Positions 9,314 to 64,000 of a DNA stretch of 64,000 nt are shown here, piece after piece. Origin of the DNA: Cirrosporium novae-zelandiae (lineage: Eukaryota); contig JAPETS010000015.1 in the NCBI GenBank assembly GCA_026023565.1, positions 558,001-622,000 of the forward strand, read 5' to 3'. Within the stretch, counting starts at the first letter, position 1, and each line of letters opens with the position of its first letter. Made by a program: the position numbers and the translations under genes. The notes below the pieces were generated by a model, which worked only from the letters and a program-made list of their open reading frames with translations, was not told the DNA's origin and made no database searches.

Positions 9314-12109
9314 CTAGAACAACTCCCTCAAAATCCTCATCAGCTCTTCCTCGCTTGCAAAAATCGCTGGAATACCCTCAACCCCACTTCCCACCGCTGC
9401 CGTCGCTGTCGTCGTCAGCCACTCCCCACCTTGTCCTTGTGAATGCGGAGGTGGGGGGGCGAATCCCGTACTCTCAGGTGTAGGGGTAGGGGTAGATGTT
9501 GAAGTGGGACCACCAGGGGCGGTGACAGTGGAAACAGAAGCAGAGGAGTTGTAGATGGCGCCTGCGGCTTCAAAGAGGGAGGTTAATTCTGCGGTCATTT
9601 GGGGGCCGTCCATTGAGGTTTGGGTGAGGCCCCCGCTGGGGATGTTGAGGGAGAATGAAGGGAGGCGGGAGGGGGGGTAGGGTTGGGGGGTTGAACCTCC
9701 TGGACCTGTAGTGGTGGGGTAGGGGTCTAGTGGTGTATGTGCTTGTTGTTGGCCAGAGGTAGCGAGACCAGCCATTGTAAGGGCGGCTGAGGAATGTGGG
9801 TCTGATTCGTCGACATTGTTGTTGGTGATAGGCATACCCGGATGTTGTTGATGCATGGCACTCGTTGGTGTAATTGCAGGAGGGGGAAGCTGCTGCATCT
9901 GCATCCTTACGCCTAAACGCTCCATGACGCCTTTAAGGCCACGAATGGTGCGCCAGAGGCGCTTGCTGATATAGCTTTCACGCTCGAAGCCGCGGACAAG
10001 ATCGAGGGCCATGTAGAATTCCTGGCGGACGACTTCATTGAAGGTGTGCGGGGCGTGTGCAACGGCAAGGAAGAGGACCGCGAGTGCGGACAGGAGGAAG
10101 TAGTTGAATAATTGCTGTTGGGTAGTGTAAAGGGAGGAGGTTTGATGCAGGGTTGACAGGACGCGGATTGTGTCGCGGGCGATATCGACGGCAGTTGCGG
10201 CGAGCGTGGGGTGACTTGTTATTATTGGAGGTGAGTGTAGGACGGGTCGGTAGATGAGGATTCGCATTTGATTAGCCCGTAAGTGGAGGAGTACTCGCAA
10301 CCGGTGTAGGGTTCGAGGGGATTCCATTATTTGGCGATGTGGGGTTATTGGTGAGTCAACGGGAGGGTACTGCAGGATGGACGGAACTGATTTGTGCCAC
10401 TGTAGGACTTGATAGTCAAGGTAGTTGAGCTCGTCGGCATTGATCGTAGGGGCGAGGGTGTTGCTGTAAGTGGAGACCGAGTTCCAGACTCGAGAGCCGA
10501 GACGGTTGTAGGCAATCATAGCGCGAAGGTAGGGGTATGTTGGATCCTGGGAAAGTGTAAGCCTAAAAATAAAATATGATATAGGTTTTGGGTGGATTGT
10601 GGGATCTTACTGGTTCGGGAAGAAGAGGGTCGATATCAGTATCTTGGATCACGAACGGCATCCCAGTTCCAAAGCTCCAACGACGGTCAAGACAACAAAC
10701 CGCCCAGAACAGTCTGGCCGCAAAAGCATAGTCCTCATCCGTGGTGAACGTCTTTACAAGGACCTCCCGACGATGCAGTCCCATTTCGAGGCACATCCTT
10801 GCAGGGATGCCAACGATCCTCCAGGCCTGGATCTCGTCGTCTAGCTGGAAGTAATATATAGACTAGAATGGGCAACTTTAGCAAAGACGGCCATGAAACA
10901 AAAATGGAAAAACTAACCACCATCACATGTAATGTCAACCCTTTGATACTTGTGGGTTCCCATAGTTTAGCTTCAGCATGTGGTCGTACACTTTCAAATA
11001 GCTTTTGCCCTAACTCGCTTTTCCCTTTCCCCTCCATAGTCAATGCAACAGCAAGGATCATTTTCAACATATTAGTATCATCGTCATCCATTCCATCCGA
11101 GCCTGGCATGCTAGTTTTGGTAAATCCGCTTCTAACAGCAGCTTCCATAAAGGTAAAGAGCATTGATGCCTGGCGAACGACTTTGGCAGGTTCTAAAATC
11201 GGATACATTGAGAGGATTTCCTCTTCAAATACCCGACACAGCCGAATAGCTTCGTCTCTTGTGAGCATCCAGAGGGGATCCTTACCTGGATGAATAGGAC
11301 CGAAGTGAGGTTCGGGCCCAGGATGAGGAATCAAGACAGGGGCTGGAGAGCCATCACGCGTCACAAAACCGTCCTCCAAAGCTTCCCCGGGCTGTGTTAT
11401 TCCCATCGTCTGCAGACTGGACTTGGCAACATCAAGATTGAAGGCGGAACTGGTAGGGCCTCGAAAACGAGGAGGATTGGTCCTAGCACGTTGAGGAGAC
11501 GGGAGATCTTGAGGCAATGGTTGCGACATAGTTAGAGATCTGGATCCTGGACGATAACCATTAGAACCAGCAGTGGATGGAGAAGCTCCATAGTCGTTGC
11601 GTAGAGTGCTTAGGTTGTTGAAAAGCGTGTCAACTTGATCTTGCAGCGCAGCAAGATGGGCCTTCATTTGGCCAAACTCCCTGGAATAAATCAATTTGGA
11701 TATACAATACAAAAACTACTAATTGAGAACAGAGACATACTCCGAGTCTCTCAACCCATTGCTACAACAATTGGGTGCATATTCGCAAGCCAGATTGAGA
11801 TGTCCGCATCTTCCGCAAGGAGTCTCTCCATTGCATTTGATCTTGCGTCGTTTGCATTCATTACTTAATTGGTTAAGTCATAAAGTGTTTCAAACATAGG
11901 AATGGAATAGCTAACCATGCTACGGATGTATATCGTTGACGTTTTGATCTAGTGGCAGGAGTGGAACTGCTATGTCCGTCATCGTCGAGTTTCCTTTTGG
12001 CTGTAGGTCCATTGGTGTGAGTTGGTGAGGAGTCGGATCTTTTTAGATATGCGACATTATCCATGCTTCCCTGTATGGGATGTTGACGATGTCTCGATAT
12101 ATTTGACAT
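9314..12109 (-). CDS. Zn(II)2Cys6 fungal-specific transcription factor (multi-exon)
   Basis: Splicing out intron 11915-11864 gives CNECKRRKIKCNGETPCGRCGHLNLAC. The middle homology region reads CLEMGLHR...LFWAVCCLDRRWSFGTGMP. Start is at 12109 or 12064. Confidence 0.92.
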
Positions 12110-51854: not shown

Positions 51855-53598
51855 TTAGTTCATTCCTATGTCAGTAGTAGGTTGATTCGGCATATCCTCC
51901 CGACCAGTCATTCCAACTTTCAGTTTCTCCTGATCCTGCAGGGTTTCCTTCAGCACCATTAATGATTCTGCGGCTGGATCATTTCGAAAGGCGACCTGTG
52001 TCGGCAAAATCTCCAAGCATCTTTTAAGAATCCAGTGGGCGTAGTTCCCCCATATCCGAACCATTCTTCGCTCGTTGCCAGCAATGAGCCAGCGGAGGAC
52101 GATGAAGTGCGTGGGGGTCATTTCTTCCACCGGCGGGTTGAGCAGACAGGAAAAGCTGTACCAGGCGAAGGGAGAGGGGAATGGGTTTTCTCCTGGTTTG
52201 GGGTAGATGCGCATCGAGCAGGCGGCGAACCCTGCAGCGAGGCCAATCATCCGTTGCTCGTGGATCTGTTTCGTGACCCACTGGCCCTGACCCCCATTCG
52301 CATATTTGTCAAAGTACCAGCCAATCGCTTTTTTTCCTTTCACCGTCTGTTCGGGCCCCGAGTAGCCAAAAAGAATGGGGCAGATTTTGTGGTACTTGGC
52401 CAGGAAAATGTCGATGAGGGGAATATTGTTCCATCGTACCATCTGAGTTCTCATTGTTTGAGAGAATAGGACGCCGATATTGTTGGCGGTCTCGGGACGG
52501 ACACCGCTTTCCGCGATAAATTGCTTTAGAATGGCTTTTACGAACGAGTTAAGAAGGAAAAGGACGAGCGCAGAGAATGACCCATCGCTACCGTCGTTTG
52601 GTGGGTGTGCGAGAAACTCTCTGATATTCACTGGTGGTGATTGCACTTTTGAGGCCGCTTCTAGCACTTTCCTAATTTCTTGCGACTGGATAAATATATG
52701 TCAACAACTATATCAATAAAAAGTCCCGCAAATGGTTATAACTTACAGGTGCAGTGGCACCGCCTTTCCCAAGAACTACTTGGCCAACGCGCTTGGTAAT
52801 CTCACGGCGCCAGTCGCTCATCTTTTCCGTGGCTGGGTGTTTCGCTTTTCTCTGCTGGTTCATCCACTCGCGAAACTCTTTTAGGTGTTTGTGGATCTCA
52901 AGGTATCGTTCGTGTTCTTGGCGTTTGCGATCTGGTATATGAGCTCCTGGCTCGGGCCATTTTTCAGGTGAGAGAGTAATGGGTTGCCCTTTCTTCTGGG
53001 CTTGAATCTGAGCTATAGCTTCAGCTTCCTTAGCTTGCGCCATGGAAAGCTCCCGTTTCCTCACTTCTTGTTTCCTTGATTCTTCGGCCGCAGCTTCAGC
53101 ATCTGCTTTCGCTTTCTCTACTCGGGCTCTCTCTGCCTGCTGGAGAGCTTGTTCTTCTTGCTGTTTGCGAGTTTCTGCAGCTTTCCTCTGTTGCTCTTGC
53201 CTTCTTATCTCTTCTTGGACCTTGGCTTCGGCTTCTGCCTCAGCTCGCAATCTTTCAGCCTCATGCCGCTTCCGTTCCTCCTCCTGTCGCTTCCTGAGAG
53301 CAGCGAGTCTCCCCTCTTCAACTTTTCGCCGTTCTGCCTCTTGTTTTGCTGCGAGTTCGGCAAGCAAGGTCTCAGCTGCTGAGCGAACACTGTCATGGTC
53401 GAGAGATGCTGCTGACAATGCCTTCTTATGCCCCTCGGCGCGCCGACGACCGAGTTCATCGAGTTGTTCTTGGAAATTTAAAGTTTTTGCGATTTGAAGT
53501 CGGCTTAAATCAATCAGCAGTTGTCGGGAAGGACTGTCTCGAAGACCTTTCCAAGGACTCGAGTTCGGAGTGCTCTTTGTAGACAGAGACGAATTCAT
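51855..53598 (-). CDS. GLE1: mRNA export factor Gle1 (2 exons; intron 52746-52686)
   Basis: Charged coiled-coil N-terminal half. The C-terminal domain has KAILKQFIAE, IDIFLAKYHKICPILFG and RMIGLAAGFAA. Confidence 0.85.
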
Positions 53599-54939
53599 TG
53601 TGGCTAGTTGTAATTATCGCCTTGACTAGAAATAGTGCTCTAGAGTAGGGTGGGGGGGGGATGGATTGATGAGCTAGTCAAGTAGTTGATGGGTTTGGAT
53701 TCAAAAGAAAGACCAAATCTCGGTGGTTGTTAGATTAAGCTGAGGTCAAAGAGCAATTAGGTGGCTAGTCTGTAAGCGTTGAGAGTAATTTTGGTTATCG
53801 AGTCATTACGATTGATGTTGGATTGATTGTGCTGTACATTGAGTAAAACGAATGAACAATAATAACCGTACAACGATGGACTATAGTGGGTGGTGATCAT
53901 GCAGTGTTGTATGTAATAGTGGTTGGTCGGACATCGGACGATGATTCGTTAGAAGCTCAATAGGTCAATAACGGATAATCGGGATTTATCAGCGGAGCCG
54001 CACCTTGTCTTAGTCTTGAAAGCCGAGAAGCCTAAAGATATTGTCCTTATGGCCTCAGGTGTCTAAATTATGACAAGGTGTTCAACTCATTTTATGCATC
54101 TATTTTTACAAATGAACCAACAAACTATTGATTTCATCCTTGAGTTTGAGTCTGGATACGGTAAGTTTTAGTGACTCTCAAAGCCAGCAACAAAGCCTCT
54201 TGGATCATTTGAATTGCCTAAAACCTCATAGCAGCACTCTATTGTTCCATTAATTTGGCAATTTTGCATTCCTTGACCGCTACAATTAACACCTAGGTAA
54301 TATAAGTAATATAAATTCTGCATCCGGAAAACCTCCCCCGGACTCTTAGGGTTTGGGTAAAAGGACAAAGAATCCACCAAGTTGATAAATTCAGGATGAA
54401 TATATTAAGCCTAGTATCAAATTTGATAATAGACCATAGGTATTTTAGACTGTTTCCGAAAAGACTGAACTCTCTTTTTCCTTCAATATTCTTAGGTCGG
54501 TCAAATTGAGATAGATAGAGAAGGGGAAAAGAGAGAGGGAGAGAGACAGAGAGACAGAGAAAGAGAGATAGAATAAATATTAAATAGTAGTAGAGTAAAT
54601 ATAATTAATACACAACCTCGTCCTTTTCTTTTCATTTTCTTCTTCTTCATCCTCTTCTTATTTCTATTTTTTTTCTCAAGGAAAAAGGTTTCGGGAGATA
54701 TGCTTCTAGGGTCCGATTTCTTCAAACCTCAAACTTCCTTGATCCTATACTCCACCCGCCAAGCTTGACGGCCGCTCGAAGCGACAGTGTGCCCGAGCTT
54801 CTCAATCCCCCCCATCGCTTCCACTCAGTGAACAGAACACACTGCACAACGGCACTTACCTCTATCCTACCCCGTCCACTGGTCCTACCCTCAACCATCG
54901 ACCTTTCTCATCCTTAACCACCATCTATCCTTCCCACCT

Positions 54940-55706: not shown

Positions 55707-58700
55707 ATGGATTCTCAAGGACAACCGGCTATTCCTGGGCCAGCAGGCCGTCGTCTGCATATAGCCCACAGAAGAAGTCCATCTGAATTGACTCCGCTGA
55801 TGAGTAAGTGATGAAATCTACATTCAAACAAACGCAAAGAGCTAACTGGTGATGCATTTAGTGGAGCAACTCGCTTTACAGCAACAGATTGAACTGCTTC
55901 AACAGCAGCAACAGCAAATTGCGGCGACACACCAGCAATATGTGAATATGGGCTTGCTGCAACCCCAGCAGCAGTTACCAGGTGTCAACTCCTACTCCCC
56001 TGTCCAGGGTCAAGTTTCTATGGCTGGGCTTTCCCCTCACGCAAATGCATATCAGTTCCCTCAGCAGATGCAACAACAGCAACAGATGCAGCAGCAACAG
56101 CAGATGCAGCAACAGCACCTTGGAGGCCTGAACGCTCCCACCCAGCCCTTATCACATCGCCGTAATCAGTCGGCTATGCCCAATATGGGCATGGGCGGGC
56201 CCCCTCCAGCTCCATCTTCTGGTGCCTCTGGATCACCATTCGCCGATTTCAATCAACAAGCGGGTGGACATCCTAGAGAAGGTGGAAATCTTCGAGGTGG
56301 CCGAGGTGGTGGTCCTATGGGAGGCGGTCATCAACGCCGCCACTCTCTTGCATTACCTGAAGCCAAGAAGGCAGCGGAGCTTGCTCAGCAAAAGCGGACA
56401 TCGTCGGGTTTCCAATTCCCTATCCCAGGAGGATCAGGCGCAGCGCCTACAGGATCCAACCGATCTGACAGCCCTGCAAACTCCGAAGACAAGCCAGGGA
56501 CCCCTCAAGGTCAACAACCTGCTCCTGGTCTTACTTCTCGAGCCGGCAATCTTCGAAATATCAACCATGGTAGGAGTCAGAGCATGGCCGTGGGCAACGG
56601 TCGTGGATCTGTTCATGGTCGTGGTCCCGGCTCTTTTCAATTCCCACCTCCCATGGCAACAAACGATGCCGGAGCCAGTGGAGACTTCCAGAGACGCGGC
56701 AGTCAACCAGGTCATGGCCGATCTGCTTCAAGGAATTTCGATGGTAATTGGCGTCAACAGAACAACAACCAGAACCAGATGCAGGAGCAGCATGGTCAAA
56801 TGGGCAACTTCATGCAACCACAAAATGTGAATGCTGCAATGTTCCAACCTAATCATCGTGCTGGTAGATCTATGAACCAGTCAATCAGTTCTTTGGGGGG
56901 GTTCCAATATCCTGGCCAACCACAATTGGTCCAACTTCCCCAAGGGCAAGTTGTCATCAGCCAGCCTCAGATGTTCGCTGGTCAGCAACTTAATCAGCTT
57001 CAGCTCAATCAGCTACAGGCACTCCAGGCCGCTCAGCTCGGTGGACAACAAGTTGGACTTCAAGCCAGCCAGCACGCCCAACCTCAAATGACCAACCAAC
57101 AACAGCAGCAACAACAACGAAAGACCCTGTTTACTCCCTATCTTCCTCAAGCCAATCTCCCCGCTCTACTTGGCGACGGTCAGCTCGTCGCGGGTATTCT
57201 TAGGGTCAACAAGAAGAACCGTAGTGATGCTTACGTTACCACATCTGATCTTGATGCTGATATTTTCATCTGCGGAAGTAAGGATAGGAATCGTGCACTT
57301 GAAGGAGACCTTGTAGCAGTGGAGTTGCTTGACGTTGATGAAGTGTGGAGTCAGAAGCGCGAAAAGGAAGAGAAGAAGAAGCGTAAGGACATTACTGACA
57401 CTCGAACTGGCAGCTCCGCTGGAGTTTCAAGGAGCGATTCAGGAGCCAATGGTGACCAAAACCACGGTAACAACGGCGAGGGTGGTCTTCGACGCCGTGG
57501 CAGTCTTCGTCAGCGACCTACCCAGAAGAAGAATGATGATGTAGAAGTCGAAGGCCAAAGTCTTCTTCTGATGGAAGAAGAAGAGATTAGTGACGAGGCT
57601 AAACCGCTTTATGCAGGTCACGTCGTTGCTGTTATTGAACGAGTTGCTGGTCAAATGTTCTCTGGAACCTTAGGATTGTTGCGACCAAGCAGCCAGGCCA
57701 CAAAAGAGAAACAAGAGGCTGAACGTCAAGCCAAGGACGGCCATTCAGGAAGACACCAGCAAGATCGTCCACAAGACAAGCCTAAGATTGTCTGGTTCAA
57801 ACCTACTGATAAACGTGTTCCACTGATTGCTATTCCTACAGAACAAGCTCCTCGCGATTTTGTTGAAAAGCATCAAGATTATGCTAACCGCATATTTGTG
57901 GCCTGCATTAAGAGATGGCCTATTACCTCCCTTCATCCCTTCGGTACATTAGTTGAACAACTCGGAGAAATGGGCAACTTGCACACCGAAACTCAGGCTC
58001 TTCTCCGTGACAACAATTTTGCCTCTGAGGAGTTCTCCGAAGCTGTTTTGAAGAATGTTGGTTTCGATAATTGGTCTTTGGAAAGCGAGAATGAACCCGC
58101 CATTTCTTCCCGACGCGATTTCCGCGACGAAACTACCTTTACCCTTGAGCCCAACGGCACTTCAGAGCTTAACAATGCTGTACATATCAAGTCTCTTCCG
58201 GATGGCCAAGTTGAAGTTGGTATTCATGTTGCTGATGTCGCCCATTTCGTGAAAGCCAATTCTTTGGTTGATCGTGAGGCGAAGAAGCGGGGGACTAGCG
58301 TCTACCTCATCAATTGTACTGTTAACATGCTGCCTCCAAAGTTGGCTTCAGACATTTGTTCTCTAATTCCCGGACAAGACCGGTTGACTACTAGCGTTGT
58401 CTTTAAAGTCAACCCGCAAAATGGACACATTGCTGATGATGATATCTGGATCGGCAAGGGTATAATTAAGAGCTCGGGTAAATTGTCTTATAGCGATGTG
58501 GACTCCATACTCGAAGGCGGCGAGATGAAAATACAAGGTGTGACCGTTGAAAACATTAAATTATTGAACGCTATTGCAAGGAAGTTCCGTGAAGCACGGT
58601 TTGGACCGCGTGCCGAGACCATTCCTCCCCTTCGATTGCTATATCAGCTCGACGATGAGAATATCCCTGTTGAGCAAAACATCTTTGACTCCACCCCAGC

Positions 58701-60056
58701 GCATGAACTTGTCGAGGAATTCGAGCGCAAAGCCAATACATTTGTTGCCAAGAAATTGGCTGAAGGGCTTCCTGACAAGGCTCTGCTACGTTTACAAGAG
58801 CCTCCTAACCCTCGCCGTCTTGCCACATTTGCGGACAGGATGACAAGAATCGGATATGACATTGATACAACCAGCAGCGGATCTCTGCAGAATAGTTTGT
58901 TCCGTGTTGAAGATGATGACATTCGAAAGGTAACCGCATGCATTTACCCTTGAGCTATTTGATTACAAGTCTAACACGTGTACTAGGGTATGGAAACTTT
59001 GCTCATTAAGACTATGCGCCGGGCCAAATATTTCGTTGCGGGCTCGAAAGCTGAACACCTACGCCAGCACTTTGCCTTTAATCTCCCTCTTTATACGCAT
59101 TTCACCGACCCCCTACGTCGCTATGCTGACGTTATTGTACATCGTCAATTGGATGCCGTGCTTGCCGGAAATGAATATTCAGAAGATATTGAAAGTCTTA
59201 CCAAGACTGCAGACCAGTGCAACAACAAAAAAGACTCTGCCCAGAGTGCACAAGAACAGAGTGTTCATATTGAATCTTGCAGAAACATGGATAAAAAGCG
59301 CAATGAAGTTGGCGGCGAGCTCATCAGTGAGGGTATTGTGCTATGCGTTTACGAGTCTGCTTTTGATATTTTGATTCCCGAATATGGCTTCGAAAAGAGA
59401 GTGCACTGTGATCAGCTGCCACTCAAGAAGGCTGAATATCGCAAGAATGAGCGTGTTCTTGAACTCTACTGGGAGAAGGGTGTGCCTTCATCAGCGTATA
59501 TCCCCGAGGACGAACGGCCCAAAGCTTCAACTTCTCGTGCACTTGAAGCCGCCCGCTATGCCGAGGCACAGAAGCAGTCTGCAAAGGAGAGAGAAGAAAT
59601 GCAACGGAAGCAGACCGAGACAGCTACAATTTCCAATGATGATGTCGATGCTCTGTTCGAAGATGATGATGACGGTATGTCCGAAGTCACTGAGATGGCA
59701 GCTGGTGTATCTCTCCATTCACCTGGACGACCAACCCAGAGCATGCCGCCATCGCCAACAAGAAATGGCCTTTCCGATCAACCTCCACACCGCACTCAAT
59801 CGGATCCAAAACTTGCAACAAGTGCGACCGAAACATCCAACTCAAACAAGGAGAAGTACTTGAAGTTTTTCAAGCTCCGAGAAGTGGATGGGGAATACAT
59901 CCAAGATGTCACCGAAATGACCCGGGTTCCTGTTATTCTCAAGACGGACCTTACCAAGAGTCCTCCGTAAGTTAAATTCCCCATCACGCTATTGCCACTT
60001 TCTAACATGAACATAGATGCTTGACAATTCGTTCAATGAATCCTTACGCTCTGTAA
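55707..60056 (+). CDS. SSD1: Ssd1/Gul-1 RNA-binding RNase II-family pseudonuclease (4 exons: 55707-55803, 55862-58929, 58987-59966, 60017-60056)
   Basis: RRLHIAHRRSPSELTPLM, a Q-rich region with HxRxxS Cbk1 sites and FQFP docking motifs, LFTPYLPQA, LRVNKKNRSDAY, GSKDRNRALEGD, YTHFTDPLRRYAD, and a C-terminus SPPCLTIRSMNPYAL*. Confidence 0.97.
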
Positions 60057-61176
60057 TTTGGCTGAAAGGGAAAGTCCTGCTCAGAAACGGGCAGTTCTTA
60101 CCTGCTAATAGCGTCCTTGATTTATCTTGGTCTCTTCTCCTTTTGAATTCTTGTCTTTCATTTGTTAACAAAATTGTTAAGAAAATACTTTATTCTGTTT
60201 AGCATCTCATCACCCGTGATTTTGAAGACGTGGGATGGTGTGAAGGATGACGGGCGAGCGTGATGCTGACCAATAGATATAACTACGCCGTTACAGTCGT
60301 GGGTTAATCTTTAAAGCAATAATCACTTTGCTTGGCAGTGAAATAGGAACAGTAGTGGTGGATAGTTGATACTGCTGAGAAACGATGGTGAATGGGCGAG
60401 GGGACTTTTCCAACTTACTTGTTTCAAGCGTAAGGGAGGCAATGGAGATCATACAGGGAGAATATTTTTAACTTCAAGTGTTCTTTTTTTTTGAGAGCCT
60501 GTAGCTAGGAATTATGTTACCTATGTATTGCTTTTGGTTGCTTGTTAAGGAAGGTAGACTTATTAATCTGCGAAATATAAATCTCCCTGCTCGGAACGTT
60601 CCCGTTTTTCTTTTGGTTGGTGAGTGGAGCAAAGACTTTTTGGGTATGTTATGTCTCCAGCGCACATTATTCAATAATTGCTTCTCTCCGCTTAGATGAT
60701 TTCGCATATTCACACATACCTCCCAAGGGCCTCGTCTTATTTATTTATCTATCTACTTATATTTAAGGATTTACTTACTAGATTAGAGCTGAATCTTGAA
60801 AGGGTTTTTATCTGTGGTAGGTAGATAAGTGAAATAGTATGTAACCACCATGGTATATGTACATGTACATGCATTGTATAACGTACTCCAAAAAATTTCT
60901 GGTCAATAGCTGCTTTTGCCGCCTTTATATATGTATACTTTTACTCATCGAGATAGATAGATGGTAGATGGTAATTTTGTTTTGCTAATTCAAGTTTGGA
61001 TTTGGATTTTTACTTTGAGTGTAAGTATATATTGGGAATGGGTGGATGGATGAGGTGGTTTTTTTTTTTTTTTCGTTGTATTCAATTCGATTTTGTGCAT
61101 TTCAGTTTATATACATACGTACATACTTGCATACATACATATACACATATATCCATAACCCCTCCCCCTACCCCAA

Positions 61177-63020
61177 TCAAGCCATCTTCCCAACATCCCG
61201 CTCCTTCTCTTTATTTTCACCTAAATACCCTTTCCCCTTCCCCTTCCCATTCCTCCCCCCAAAAAACCACCGCACCCTCATAAACTCCAAAAACAATTCC
61301 TTCTGATTTAATTCCTCATCCTCTACAACCTGCCCTAAACCCTCACCATCACCATCACCGCTGATACTATTACTATTGTTGCCGCGGGCCAAGGCGTCTT
61401 GTTTCGCGTGCAGGAATGTGGACCATCGAATCCAGATTATCCAGAGGATTAGAACTAGGATTGTGAGGGGGATTGTGATAGCCCAGTATATCCAGAAGGA
61501 GTGGGTTGTTAGGTGATTTGATGATGATGACGAGGAGGAAGAAGAAGAAGAAGAGGAGGAGGAGGGGGTTAGTGTGAAGATGGGCATGGAGAATAGGGTC
61601 TATATTTTTGGGGAGTTAGGATTTGGATTTGGGATTAAGGATTAAGGGGGGGGTTAGACGGGGCTCACAGCAACAAAGGTACCGGGGAGGAAGATCATGG
61701 TTAGTAAGGCGATTGTTTTCATAGCGGAAGAATCGTGCTTGCTTGACTGGGCTAGGCTACGCTGGTCGGCTGCTACTTGGAGGTTTGTTATGTTGTCTCT
61801 TTGTTGGGTGAAGTTGTAGACCTGGAAATGCGGGTTAGATTCTGAGGTTCTTGATGGGCCAAAGTGGGGGGTGCTGTGATGGACTTTGCTTGAAGGGTTT
61901 TAGTCTTCTCAATGTCTCGTGTGTAAGTTGGGTTCTTAAGAATTAAGTCTTTTATACGGTTTGAGTGAATACTACTGCCTTGATAAGACTCCCTTTTATG
62001 AAACGTATGGGTTGTAGTTTGGAATTGGCTCATTGAGAACGGTGTAGAAAAGAAAACCATGTAGAAGGAAGGGAAAATCGAAACTTACCACAGCCAACTG
62101 CGTCGTTGCCCGTTTCTGGTTATACTGCACTCTTAGAAGCAAATTTCGACAGAATGATATATCATTTCCGATATCCTCCTCTATGATCTTCCGATCATGC
62201 TCCATACGTTGTTTCCGAGATCCCTGAGTAGAATCCGAAATCTGGACGTTATACCTAAGGATCGTCTGGAAAAGTTGGATCAGGGCATTCACTCTCAGCT
62301 CTATGATGCCGAGGGAATTGCTGCAGCTATTTAGGGATCGAGTTGTCTGGAGATCAACGGCAAATGGATCGCCCACTGGCCTCCATCGGAATGTGTGCAT
62401 ACCTGTTGTCTCTTCGATGCTGTTCAGGCGGCGGTCAGCAGAGTCAGTTTTCTCGGAGCAGAGATCCAAGACAACTTCTGCAACTTTGAAGGGAAGGAGC
62501 ATCGGGTGACAGGCCAGGTGTCTAGAGCCATTGAGGAGGACCCATACTTGAGCGAGGGCCATGGTTGTTTGGCCGAGGAAGATAGCCGTGTTCATGCCAC
62601 TAGATACATCATGAGTTACCGCGTACGTGGCGAATCCTGTAAAATGGAGGCCGGTTTTGAATATAAATGCTGGGAGCTGTTAAGTGCTAATACCCAAGTG
62701 CTCGAGTGTATATAAACTCACATAAATGGGTTGGTTTTCGGTCACTGCCATAGCTGGTTTGCTTCCCGCTGTGTGCCGTTCTTTGGTAGATAAGCTGTGA
62801 ATACTTCCTGGAAATTTTGAAAATTTCCATAATGCTGCTGAAATCTGCCGAGGAAAATGGGATCGCTTCGAATTTTCTCTCGTTGTGGACTCGGTCGCTA
62901 CAATTACCTATGCTACAGATTTTTGTAAATGAATAGTTCGGGACAGGGATCTAGAGGGTTCAAATCATACATCATGCGAAGACCTCCGTAAGGTAATAGT
63001 CCATCAAGTTTGCCTGGCCT
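61177..63020 (-). CDS. Fungal CorA-like membrane protein region (exons 63020-62971, 62912-62722, 62669-62089, 61821-61669, 61599-61177); probably the 3' part of a gene that starts in the forkhead exon
   Basis: All splice phases are consistent. The product reads GGLRMI..IPFS..HPMLLP..QLAVVYNFTQQRDN..DSSAMKTIALLTMIFLPGTFVA/TLFSMP..SFWIYWAITIPLT (two TM helices). Confidence 0.85.
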
Positions 63021-63104
63021 CTTTGAGATATGTTTAGCTTTGGAGTTGAGACCATAGGGGCCCAATGGTGTCCGTCGGTTCCTATAAAATGGAAAAGATC
63101 ATAC

Positions 63105-63956
63105 CTTCTTGAGCCAATTATAGATCCCATCATCCAAGACCAGTGATCTTGTCATTTTGGTCACATGCTGCGGAGAAGTATCAGCACGGTTTTCTGGGCG
63201 TTCTTTCGATCGAATAGTGGCATCTCGTACATCATAATTGTATATGTCCAATGTATCCATTCGAAAGTTCGTTTCTCCTCTAGTAGGATTCCTGGTGGAT
63301 CTAACAAATTGTATCTCAGACCCAGGCTTAATCGCCCAGTAGATATCATAGCCTGAATCACCCTTGGGTCTTTCATGACAGACAAAGATCTTGTTTTCAT
63401 TAAGCGTACGAAGGATATTCCTTTGCCAAGTGGTTCCATTTTTGTAATAGCTGAAGGTACAAGATATCCACGAGCAAATTTGCATCATGGTCTGCTGTCG
63501 GTCTGGCGCACGGAGAATCGCCATCCCTATGAGATTCGTCCAATTGTACGGTGGTTTTCCAAGCTCGTCTTCAACTGGAGGCATATCCTCTGGAGCAGGT
63601 ACTCCGTCGTGTTGCGAGGGACCCACCCATGAGTTCGGATTGATATTGCTGCTTTCTAGGATACGGTAGTCGTCGGGCAAATCGGCATCGTATGCATCAT
63701 TTTCGGAAAACGACGGCTCCTCGTCCGTTGGATTCAAGGGAGATTGCCTCCTTCGTCTCTTTAAAACCTTGTCCATACTTGGGGAAGCTGCACCATGGGA
63801 TTTTTCATCGGTAAATTGTTCAGTTGAGTCCTGGTCAGGGGATGGGTCCTCGTCAATTATACGCATAGAATTTGATATGCCTCTATGACTATCATTATCA
63901 GCAGATTCATCTGCTACGATCGTTGAACTGGCATAAGTATCGTCGAGATCAATCAT
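63105..63956 (-). CDS. Exon encoding an acidic low-complexity region plus a divergent Sep1/Hcm1-like forkhead domain; may begin beyond the window edge
   Basis: PAPEDMPPVEDELGKPPYNWTNLIGMAILRAPDRQQTMMQICSWISCTFSYY..WQ..ERPKGD..YWAIKPG. The ORF ends on a donor-like AAG|GTATGA. ATG at 63956, and the frame stays open to the window end. Confidence 0.75.
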
Positions 63957-64000
63957 TGTAAAGTGATCGAGCAAAATAGTGTAGTTAAGTGGTACGGCAT

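Follow-up and report, generated by a model that had tools for sequence, protein, structure and literature searches.

Do a forkhead-encoding open reading frame (ORF) and the exons of a CorA-like protein with two transmembrane (TM) helices, which follow one another on the minus strand of a contig from Cirrosporium novae-zelandiae, belong to one gene? We addressed this question in a stretch of 64,000 nucleotides (nt) from GenBank assembly GCA_026023565.1 (contig JAPETS010000015.1, positions 558,001 to 622,000), hereafter the window, for which a preliminary description made from the letters alone had proposed such a fusion. Judged from its sequence, the locus is, with moderate confidence, probably a single lineage-specific chimeric gene encoding a fused protein of forkhead and CorA-like parts.

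The gene is read on the minus strand. The six joined exons, checked by translation, come to 2250 nt and encode 749 amino acids (aa) plus a stop, with no internal stop codon, exactly as proposed in the preliminary description (Table 1). The forkhead ORF is open for 299 codons, from the window edge at 63998 to a TGA at 63101-63099, and its first ATG lies at 63956. The frame is also unbroken from 63957 to 63998 on the minus strand, up to the window edge, and the true start codon and promoter may sit outside the window. At the other end of the ORF, the apparent TGA stop overlaps a candidate splice donor (AAG/GTATGA at 63105/63104), which could pair with an acceptor (CAAAG/AGG at 63021/63020); this double role of GTATGA, the 84-nt phase-0 intron and its GCTAAAC element were all reproduced here as first described. 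The TGA resembling the forkhead stop is the second codon of this putative intron 1, retention of which would give a 285-aa forkhead-only product. The frame-0 coding score of intron 1 is -0.33.

The frame that follows the TGA (ORF 62913..63098) is the same as that of the forkhead ORF and contains no ATG before the methionine of GGLRM, which bears out the earlier statement that the first CorA-like exon has no in-frame ATG upstream of GGLR; the gap between the TGA and exon 2 is 78 nt. A GGLR(M/L)I(I/L/V) motif spans the exon 2/3 junction and is contiguous in the relatives P0068 and P0148, whose alignments cross the junction with high posterior and extend to model residues 290-295; here GGLRMIIGNC of the window is aligned with GGPRLLLGIC and GGLRLIV-C in relatives. 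Because the family alignments cross this junction, exon 2 is coding and intron 2 is rightly placed. Exon 2 is thus an internal exon: it has no start codon, and full-length relatives have 62-73 residues before the GG, so that an upstream coding exon is required. Two other starts were considered and rejected. A start at the methionine of GGLRM (residue 300) does not agree with the motif and the family alignments, which reach further upstream, and an out-of-frame ATG after the TGA and ahead of exon 2 (ORF 62972..63151) leads to a stop before the GGLR frame, with no usable donor seen. Introns 4 and 5 are confirmed in a similar way, since the spliced junctions QLAV/VYNF and GTFVA/TLF are uninterrupted in the relatives P0050, P0054 and P0068.

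Upstream of exon 2, 20 GT sites in the window combine an in-frame ATG with the right phase. The real-looking donors among them are 63104 (GTATGA) and two distant sites in other frames (63778 and 63862), and of the four phase-compatible GT sites of the forkhead frame nearest to exon 2, only 63104 is consensus-like. As the sole nearby consensus-like donor is the end of the forkhead ORF, we consider it very likely that the CorA-like gene has its first coding exon within this ORF. In-phase GT...AG pairs being so common, splice signals alone are weak evidence, and the weight of the single-gene case lies in the homology across the exon 2/3 junction and in the relative L001.

L001 is the single related genomic locus that we compared (54% identity in exon 4). 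Its GGLRL exon likewise has no ATG, is preceded by an in-frame stop and begins at a phase-0 acceptor 10-11 codons before the GG. In the L001 model (six exons, 478 aa), all five intron positions and phases coincide with those of the window, and in both models intron 1 follows W-x-x-x, with the donor three codons after the tryptophan. A similar arrangement may exist in a third sequence: P0112, an ORF called in ENA, continues V-Y-G after W-L-E-K, as would be expected of read-through into a GT intron at the third position after the tryptophan, which offers a lead for another instance of intron 1.

The spacing within exon 1 points the same way. Similarity to forkhead proteins stops near residue 220, and Met233, an internal methionine considered below, follows after just 13 codons, leaving no space for a terminator and a promoter. 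An mRNA begun upstream would meet Met1 and several in-frame ATGs ahead of Met233, and the forkhead frame has not closed, although the nearest forkhead domains differ from it by about 50%. The fusion looks lineage-specific, because L001 lacks a forkhead and none of the 114 family matches described below carries one.

Table 1. Features of the forkhead/CorA-like locus, in window coordinates.
Feature	Position	Strand	Description
Exons of the joined model	63956-63105, 63020-62971, 62912-62722, 62669-62089, 61821-61669, 61599-61177	-	
Exon 1	63105..63956	-	Residues 1-284: disordered acidic N-terminus with KRRRR patch, HCM1-type forkhead domain, 64-residue tail ending W-L-K-K
Forkhead (winged-helix) domain	63306..63557	-	Residues 134-217; from Pfam, HCM1 homology and AlphaFold2
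Met233 ATG	63258..63260	-	Candidate ancestral or alternative start; 517 aa, 63 residues before the GG motif
Met268 ATG	63153..63155	-	Second possible internal start; context CAAAATGA; 482 aa
Intron 1 (putative)	63021..63104	-	84 nt, phase 0, GTATGA...CAAAG; GCTAAAC 12 nt before the acceptor
Exon 2	62971..63020	-	50 nt, residues 285-300 plus 2 nt; ends GGLRM; no upstream in-frame ATG
Intron 2	62913..62970	-	58 nt, phase 2, GTATGA...TGTAG; position and phase as in L001
Exon 3	62722..62912	-	191 nt
Intron 3	62670..62721	-	52 nt, phase 1, GTGAGT...CCCAG; branch-like CTTAAC
Exon 4	62089..62669	-	581 nt; conserved family core, corresponding to the CorA-type cytosolic alpha/beta domain and long helices
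Intron 4	61822..62088	-	267 nt, phase 0, GTAAGT...TCTAAC...CAG
Exon 5	61669..61821	-	153 nt; most of TM1; sub-threshold Pfam CorA match
Intron 5	61600..61668	-	69 nt, phase 0, GTGAGC...CTAAC...ATAG
Exon 6	61177..61599	-	End of TM1 with SMP (61582-61590), 15-Ser loop (61519-61563), TM2 (61429-61497), Gly/Lys-rich tail, TGA stop

As anticipated for the 749-aa model, the Pfam Forkhead profile (PF00250) matches residues 134-217 with an E value of 9.8e-19 (67.7 bits, with a cut-off of 27, covering positions 2-87 of the 88 in the profile), and 29 solved forkhead chains are recovered at E <= 1e-5 (E value 3.9e-14 to solved forkhead domains). Its nearest database relatives, 48 HCM1-type factors 518-816 aa long and 41-55% identical, all carry PF00250 alone; when proteins of 156-499 aa were searched by words with the forkhead ORF, none matched. 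These factors from Pezizomycotina (about 720 aa; JGI calls them 'forkhead transcription factor HCM1') share the PEDMPPVED flank and the winged helix with the window protein, and the homology is collinear, at 41-54% identity, from about residue 70/88 to the point where it ends. Beyond that point the consensus of the 48 relatives continues for about 450 residues with conserved C-terminal blocks, whereas the window protein has none of these and the remainder is a membrane protein. The HCM1-like relatives also have about 65 more residues before the domain than the window protein has.

The divergence of the window forkhead is concentrated where a canonical forkhead reads DNA. Of 61 HCM1 columns that are near-invariant, with 44 or more of the 48 relatives agreeing, 42 are retained in the window and 19 altered. 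In the recognition helix (residues 177-187, 63396..63428 on the minus strand), it has WQRNILRTLNE in place of the WQNSIRHNLSL of the 48 HCM1-like proteins, so that of the nine residues following WQ only the two hydrophobic ones persist and seven differ, all in columns that 46-48 of the 48 proteins share. The canonical N-S-I-R-H-N-L-S-L is also found in solved FoxD3 and HNF-3 chains, in contrast to R-N-I-L-R-T-L-N-E of the window. The Lys-Gly of the wing, canonical in HCM1 factors, is replaced as well, accounting for two of the 19 altered columns, while the PEDMPPVED flank and the positions of the hydrophobic core are preserved.

Two further analyses of this segment, both partly circular, suggest a folded domain and a coding ORF. 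AlphaFold2 (AF2) predicts a winged helix for residues 120-220 (predicted local distance difference test, pLDDT, 91-97; helices at 139-148, 157-167 and 176-187, strands at 154-156, 191-194 and 206-209) and disorder for residues 1-115 and 222-275, from an alignment that was itself built of forkhead proteins and therefore favors a forkhead fold. Each third of the forkhead ORF has a frame-0 codon score between +0.09 and +0.18, compared with -0.29 to -0.37 for introns, and only frame 0 is positive, yet the score was trained on unverified long ORFs of the window, so that an open frame scores well partly by construction. Taken with the alignments, sequence and model indicate that the forkhead segment is a divergent fragment of an HCM1 paralogue, whose fold looks kept and whose canonical DNA-reading surface is altered. 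Because the polar recognition-helix residues and the wing Lys-Gly are replaced, the winged-helix module is unlikely to bind DNA sequence-specifically in the manner of a canonical forkhead; a role as an accessory, regulatory or new-specificity binding domain appears more plausible.

The second part of the protein belongs to a large family. A search with exon 4 (193 aa) returned 114 representatives, 42 of them at E <= 1e-10 and six at E <= 1e-30 (best E value, 3e-48); most are single-exon fragments, the longest has 465 aa, and the named members come from the ascomycetes Loxospora ochrophaea and Acephala macrosclerotiorum. On these matches, the CorA-fold family appears to be ascomycete-specific. 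A word-based search with exon 4 against longer proteins gave no match. Local phmmer alignment of the joined model reached E values of 3e-100 to P0050 (residues 406-687) and 2.6e-55 to P0068 (residues 295-667), and the family similarity runs end to end over model residues ~290-749, taking in the N-terminal GGLR-L-I motif as well as the core and both TM helices. Motifs common to the family and the window are GGLR-L-I, IEETTGMHTF, YNQKRATTQLAV, FLPGTF and (S/A)MP.

The window protein thus resembles P0068 (A. macrosclerotiorum, 465 aa), P0050 (L. ochrophaea) and L001 in its motifs, and the L001 model in its introns. In contrast to these relatives, which have a short, unconserved N-terminus (60-75 residues before the GG) and no forkhead, it carries a forkhead domain. 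It also differs from L001 in that its TM1-TM2 loop carries 15 additional serines and intron 4 is longer. The serine run (61519-61563 on the minus strand) is coded by a trinucleotide microsatellite and corresponds to a 15-residue alignment gap in L001. Intron 4 measures 267 nt, compared with 56 nt at the same position in L001 and 52-84 nt for the other four introns of the window gene. Directly past the stop codon, the 3' flank contains an (ATAC)n-like repeat and a T15 run (61108-61157 and 61059-61073).

How CorA-like this family is depends on the level at which it is compared. In CorA, the GMN motif confers selectivity and is Mg2+-selective, and both termini are cytoplasmic. When the window protein was scanned exon by exon, the CorA match that the preliminary description had expected remained below the Pfam threshold (PF01544, 13.6 bits in exon 5 against a cut-off of 27), as did that of the full-length relative P0068 (14.8 bits); weak PF01544 matches, at the TM region, occur in three of the 114 family members (best E value, 6.4e-6). 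NCBIfam gave corA and ZntB matches, all sub-threshold (TIGR00383 in P0097, E value 3.7e-6), and the family profile found no CorA chain among Protein Data Bank sequences at E <= 1. In the Atlas, a neighbour cluster all of whose members carry PF26616 'CorA-like' scored 0.90 with 165 shared features; PF26616 was not listed by our local Pfam scan of the exons and the 114 relatives.

The fold was assessed on the relative P0068, not on the window protein. AF2 gave its core a pLDDT above 90, with residues 1-94 below 50, and the 23 top Foldseek matches of this model were all CorA, ZntB or MRS2, with E values of 4.1e-5 to 1.8e-3. In VIA, the model matched the cytosolic domain of Campylobacter jejuni CorA (8zak_B) with Z 15.4 and a root-mean-square deviation of 3.2 Å over 198 residues, and 5n77_A with Z 14.7, on a scale where unrelated helical structures reach Z ~13. 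The family model shares with the CorA/ZntB/Mrs2-Alr1 group (PF01544) an alpha/beta domain in the cytosol, long helices that form a stalk and two TM helices at the C-terminus. Where that group has GMN, at the end of TM1, the window (residues 613-615) and P0050 have SMP, and L001, P0058, P0068 and P0097 have AMP; the family also scores below the Pfam and NCBIfam cut-offs. The designation CorA-like therefore holds for the fold, as modeled in a relative, and not for Pfam membership or the GMN motif, and the family is best described as CorA-like in fold and not as a demonstrated member of the Mg2+ channels. The CorA-like part of the window protein probably works like its stand-alone relatives, as an oligomeric membrane protein with a pore motif differing from GMN.

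Returning to the question of one gene, several observations, besides the partial circularity of the two analyses above, weigh against a fused product. The preliminary description had proposed looking for the same architecture in other fungal proteins, and we did not find it: PF00250 is present in 0 of the 114 CorA-family matches, none of which is longer than 465 aa, and the architecture occurs in 0 of the 48 long forkhead matches. A full-text literature search did not find the combination of forkhead and CorA-like parts either. Nothing forkhead-like lies in the 10 kb that flank L001 on each side, an in-frame stop precedes the ATG that opens exon 1 of L001, and its intron-1 donor is a choice among four consensus-like, phase-compatible GT sites. 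L001 shows no synteny with the RNB and GLE1 genes that neighbor the window gene and may be a paralogue. Comparison of the exon-1 tail (residues 221-285) with family N-termini was not significant (the observed score was reached in 222, 261, 652 and 39 of 1000 shuffles), and true family members resemble one another scarcely more here. The branch-like site of intron 1 (CTAAA) is weaker than those of introns 3-5. Finally, Met233 and Met268 could each start a stand-alone CorA-like protein of normal family length. The single-gene proposal has gained comparative support, in that exon 2 is coding, lacks its own start and is internal with a phase-0 acceptor in L001.

One further observation concerns L001 itself. 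Upstream of its GGLRL exon, another frame (9374-9487 on the plus strand) holds a second, shorter copy-like motif, W-Q-E-R-N-L-R-L-I-G-N-H-T-C, that ends at GTATGA. It may be what is left of a duplication of exons 2/3, or it may serve as an alternative first exon, and it makes the 5' model of L001 uncertain.

The internal methionines lead to the alternative that survives best, namely that the locus gives separate products. A CorA-like protein of 482-517 aa would then be translated from Met233 or Met268 on a transcript begun inside the forkhead ORF, which we regard as possible though rather unlikely. To the same tentative degree, the forkhead ORF would on this account either be expressed alone, up to the TGA in unspliced intron 1 (285 aa), or be a mere upstream leader. 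The 63 residues between Met233 and the GG fit the relatives well (72 in the L001 model, 73 in P0068 and about 62 in P0148), and the context of Met268 is strong. The lack of a forkhead in L001 and in all database relatives agrees with such an arrangement, as does the immediate stop that follows retention of intron 1. It would, however, require a promoter inside a coding-like ORF and overlapping transcripts on the same strand, with no more than the 13 codons that separate Met233 from the forkhead homology available, and any transcript through the forkhead stop would also carry exon 1 of the CorA-like gene and the intron-1 donor.

Alternatively, the forkhead segment could be the decaying relic of an HCM1-like gene duplicated beside a CorA-like gene, its continuity with the latter being accidental and the locus perhaps a pseudogene. 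The extent of change among the near-invariant HCM1 columns, including the recognition helix and the wing, would be expected of a relic, as would the modest Pfam score, the absence of the C-terminal HCM1 blocks and the uniqueness of the architecture. Against decay, the frame has stayed open over its 299 codons at this level of divergence, the changes are unevenly spread and spare the hydrophobic core and the PEDMPPVED flank, the frame-specific codon bias resembles that of the CorA-like exons, and those exons remain intact, lacking none of the family motifs or splice sites. We therefore give this explanation only a slim chance. A chimeric join of unrelated regions in the tail of the forkhead ORF during assembly is highly improbable: the uniqueness of the architecture is all that would suggest it, with no direct support, whereas the sequence is continuous without any N, frame and splice phase are kept across the supposed join, GC content is even (0.43-0.47 over 61000-64000) and the neighbours are ordinary housekeeping genes.

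For the fused gene that we favor, we propose that the front of an HCM1-type forkhead paralogue, from its N-terminal flank through the winged helix (to about residue 220), became the 5' part of the gene and was joined in frame a few codons upstream of Met233, the probable original start of a complete member of the CorA-fold family. Transcription from upstream of the forkhead ORF, removal of intron 1 and translation from Met1 would then yield a membrane protein with an N-terminal cytosolic winged helix and a disordered linker. By analogy with CorA, the winged helix would lie on the cytosolic or nucleoplasmic side together with the disordered acidic segment and the KRRRR patch, all attached to the alpha/beta domain of a two-TM oligomer.

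Such a layout recalls the membrane-tethered fungal factors Mga2/Spt23 and SREBP/Sre1, which also place a DNA-binding-type domain and a basic patch at a cytosolic N-terminus. The window protein has no known homology to them and differs in that its anchor is a whole CorA-fold module instead of a single tail anchor, its DNA-reading helix is degenerate and no cleavage or release signal was identified in it. With its recognition helix altered, the protein is unlikely to be a membrane-tethered forkhead factor of the classical type, and the earlier suggestion of a membrane-tethered regulator is, for a canonical factor, opposed by the loss of seven of nine recognition-helix positions. A more elaborate possibility, to which we assign a small chance, is that the full 749-aa protein assembles in a nuclear or other internal membrane as an oligomer of the CorA type, where an N-terminal ring of re-purposed winged helices would bind a nucleic acid or protein ligand and either gate the pore or, once released by processing, act in the nucleus. 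If true, a forkhead-derived sensor would be coupled directly to a membrane channel, an architecture without a described counterpart.

The preliminary description had also raised a sensor- or decoy-gated pore as a non-self or death effector. We found no support for this or for a role in defence: PADLOC defence models match none of the seven proteins searched, and the surroundings are housekeeping genes. With regard to the CorA-type effectors of bacterial type III CRISPR systems, none of the seven proteins matches any PADLOC CorA model at E <= 0.1, although the presence of such a model in PADLOC 2.0 was not verified. The convergent neighbour (55846-59970, plus strand) extends over two long ORFs with OB_Dis3, RNB and Dis3l2_C_term domains and is a Dis3L2/Ssd1-like exoribonuclease gene, probably with one intron or frame change near 58950-58990. 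Further along, a minus-strand ORF (51855-52700) contains a GLE1-like domain (E value 8.9e-28), and the adjoining ORF on the same strand (52708-53613, 301 aa) has no Pfam match; the two are probably one gene.

Neither domain family of the locus is new, and genes are known to fuse; it is the combination of the two families that we did not find among the 114 and 48 relatives or in the literature search. The fused protein, if it is made, would offer a handle on a large, unstudied ascomycete family that has the CorA fold without GMN. If an internal start alone is used, it would be a clean case of an in-frame upstream ORF misleading gene prediction. If the fused protein is made, it would be a natural case of the DNA-binding fold of a transcription factor being captured by a membrane protein and then altered at its DNA-reading surface, and would be useful for studying how domain function changes after fusion.

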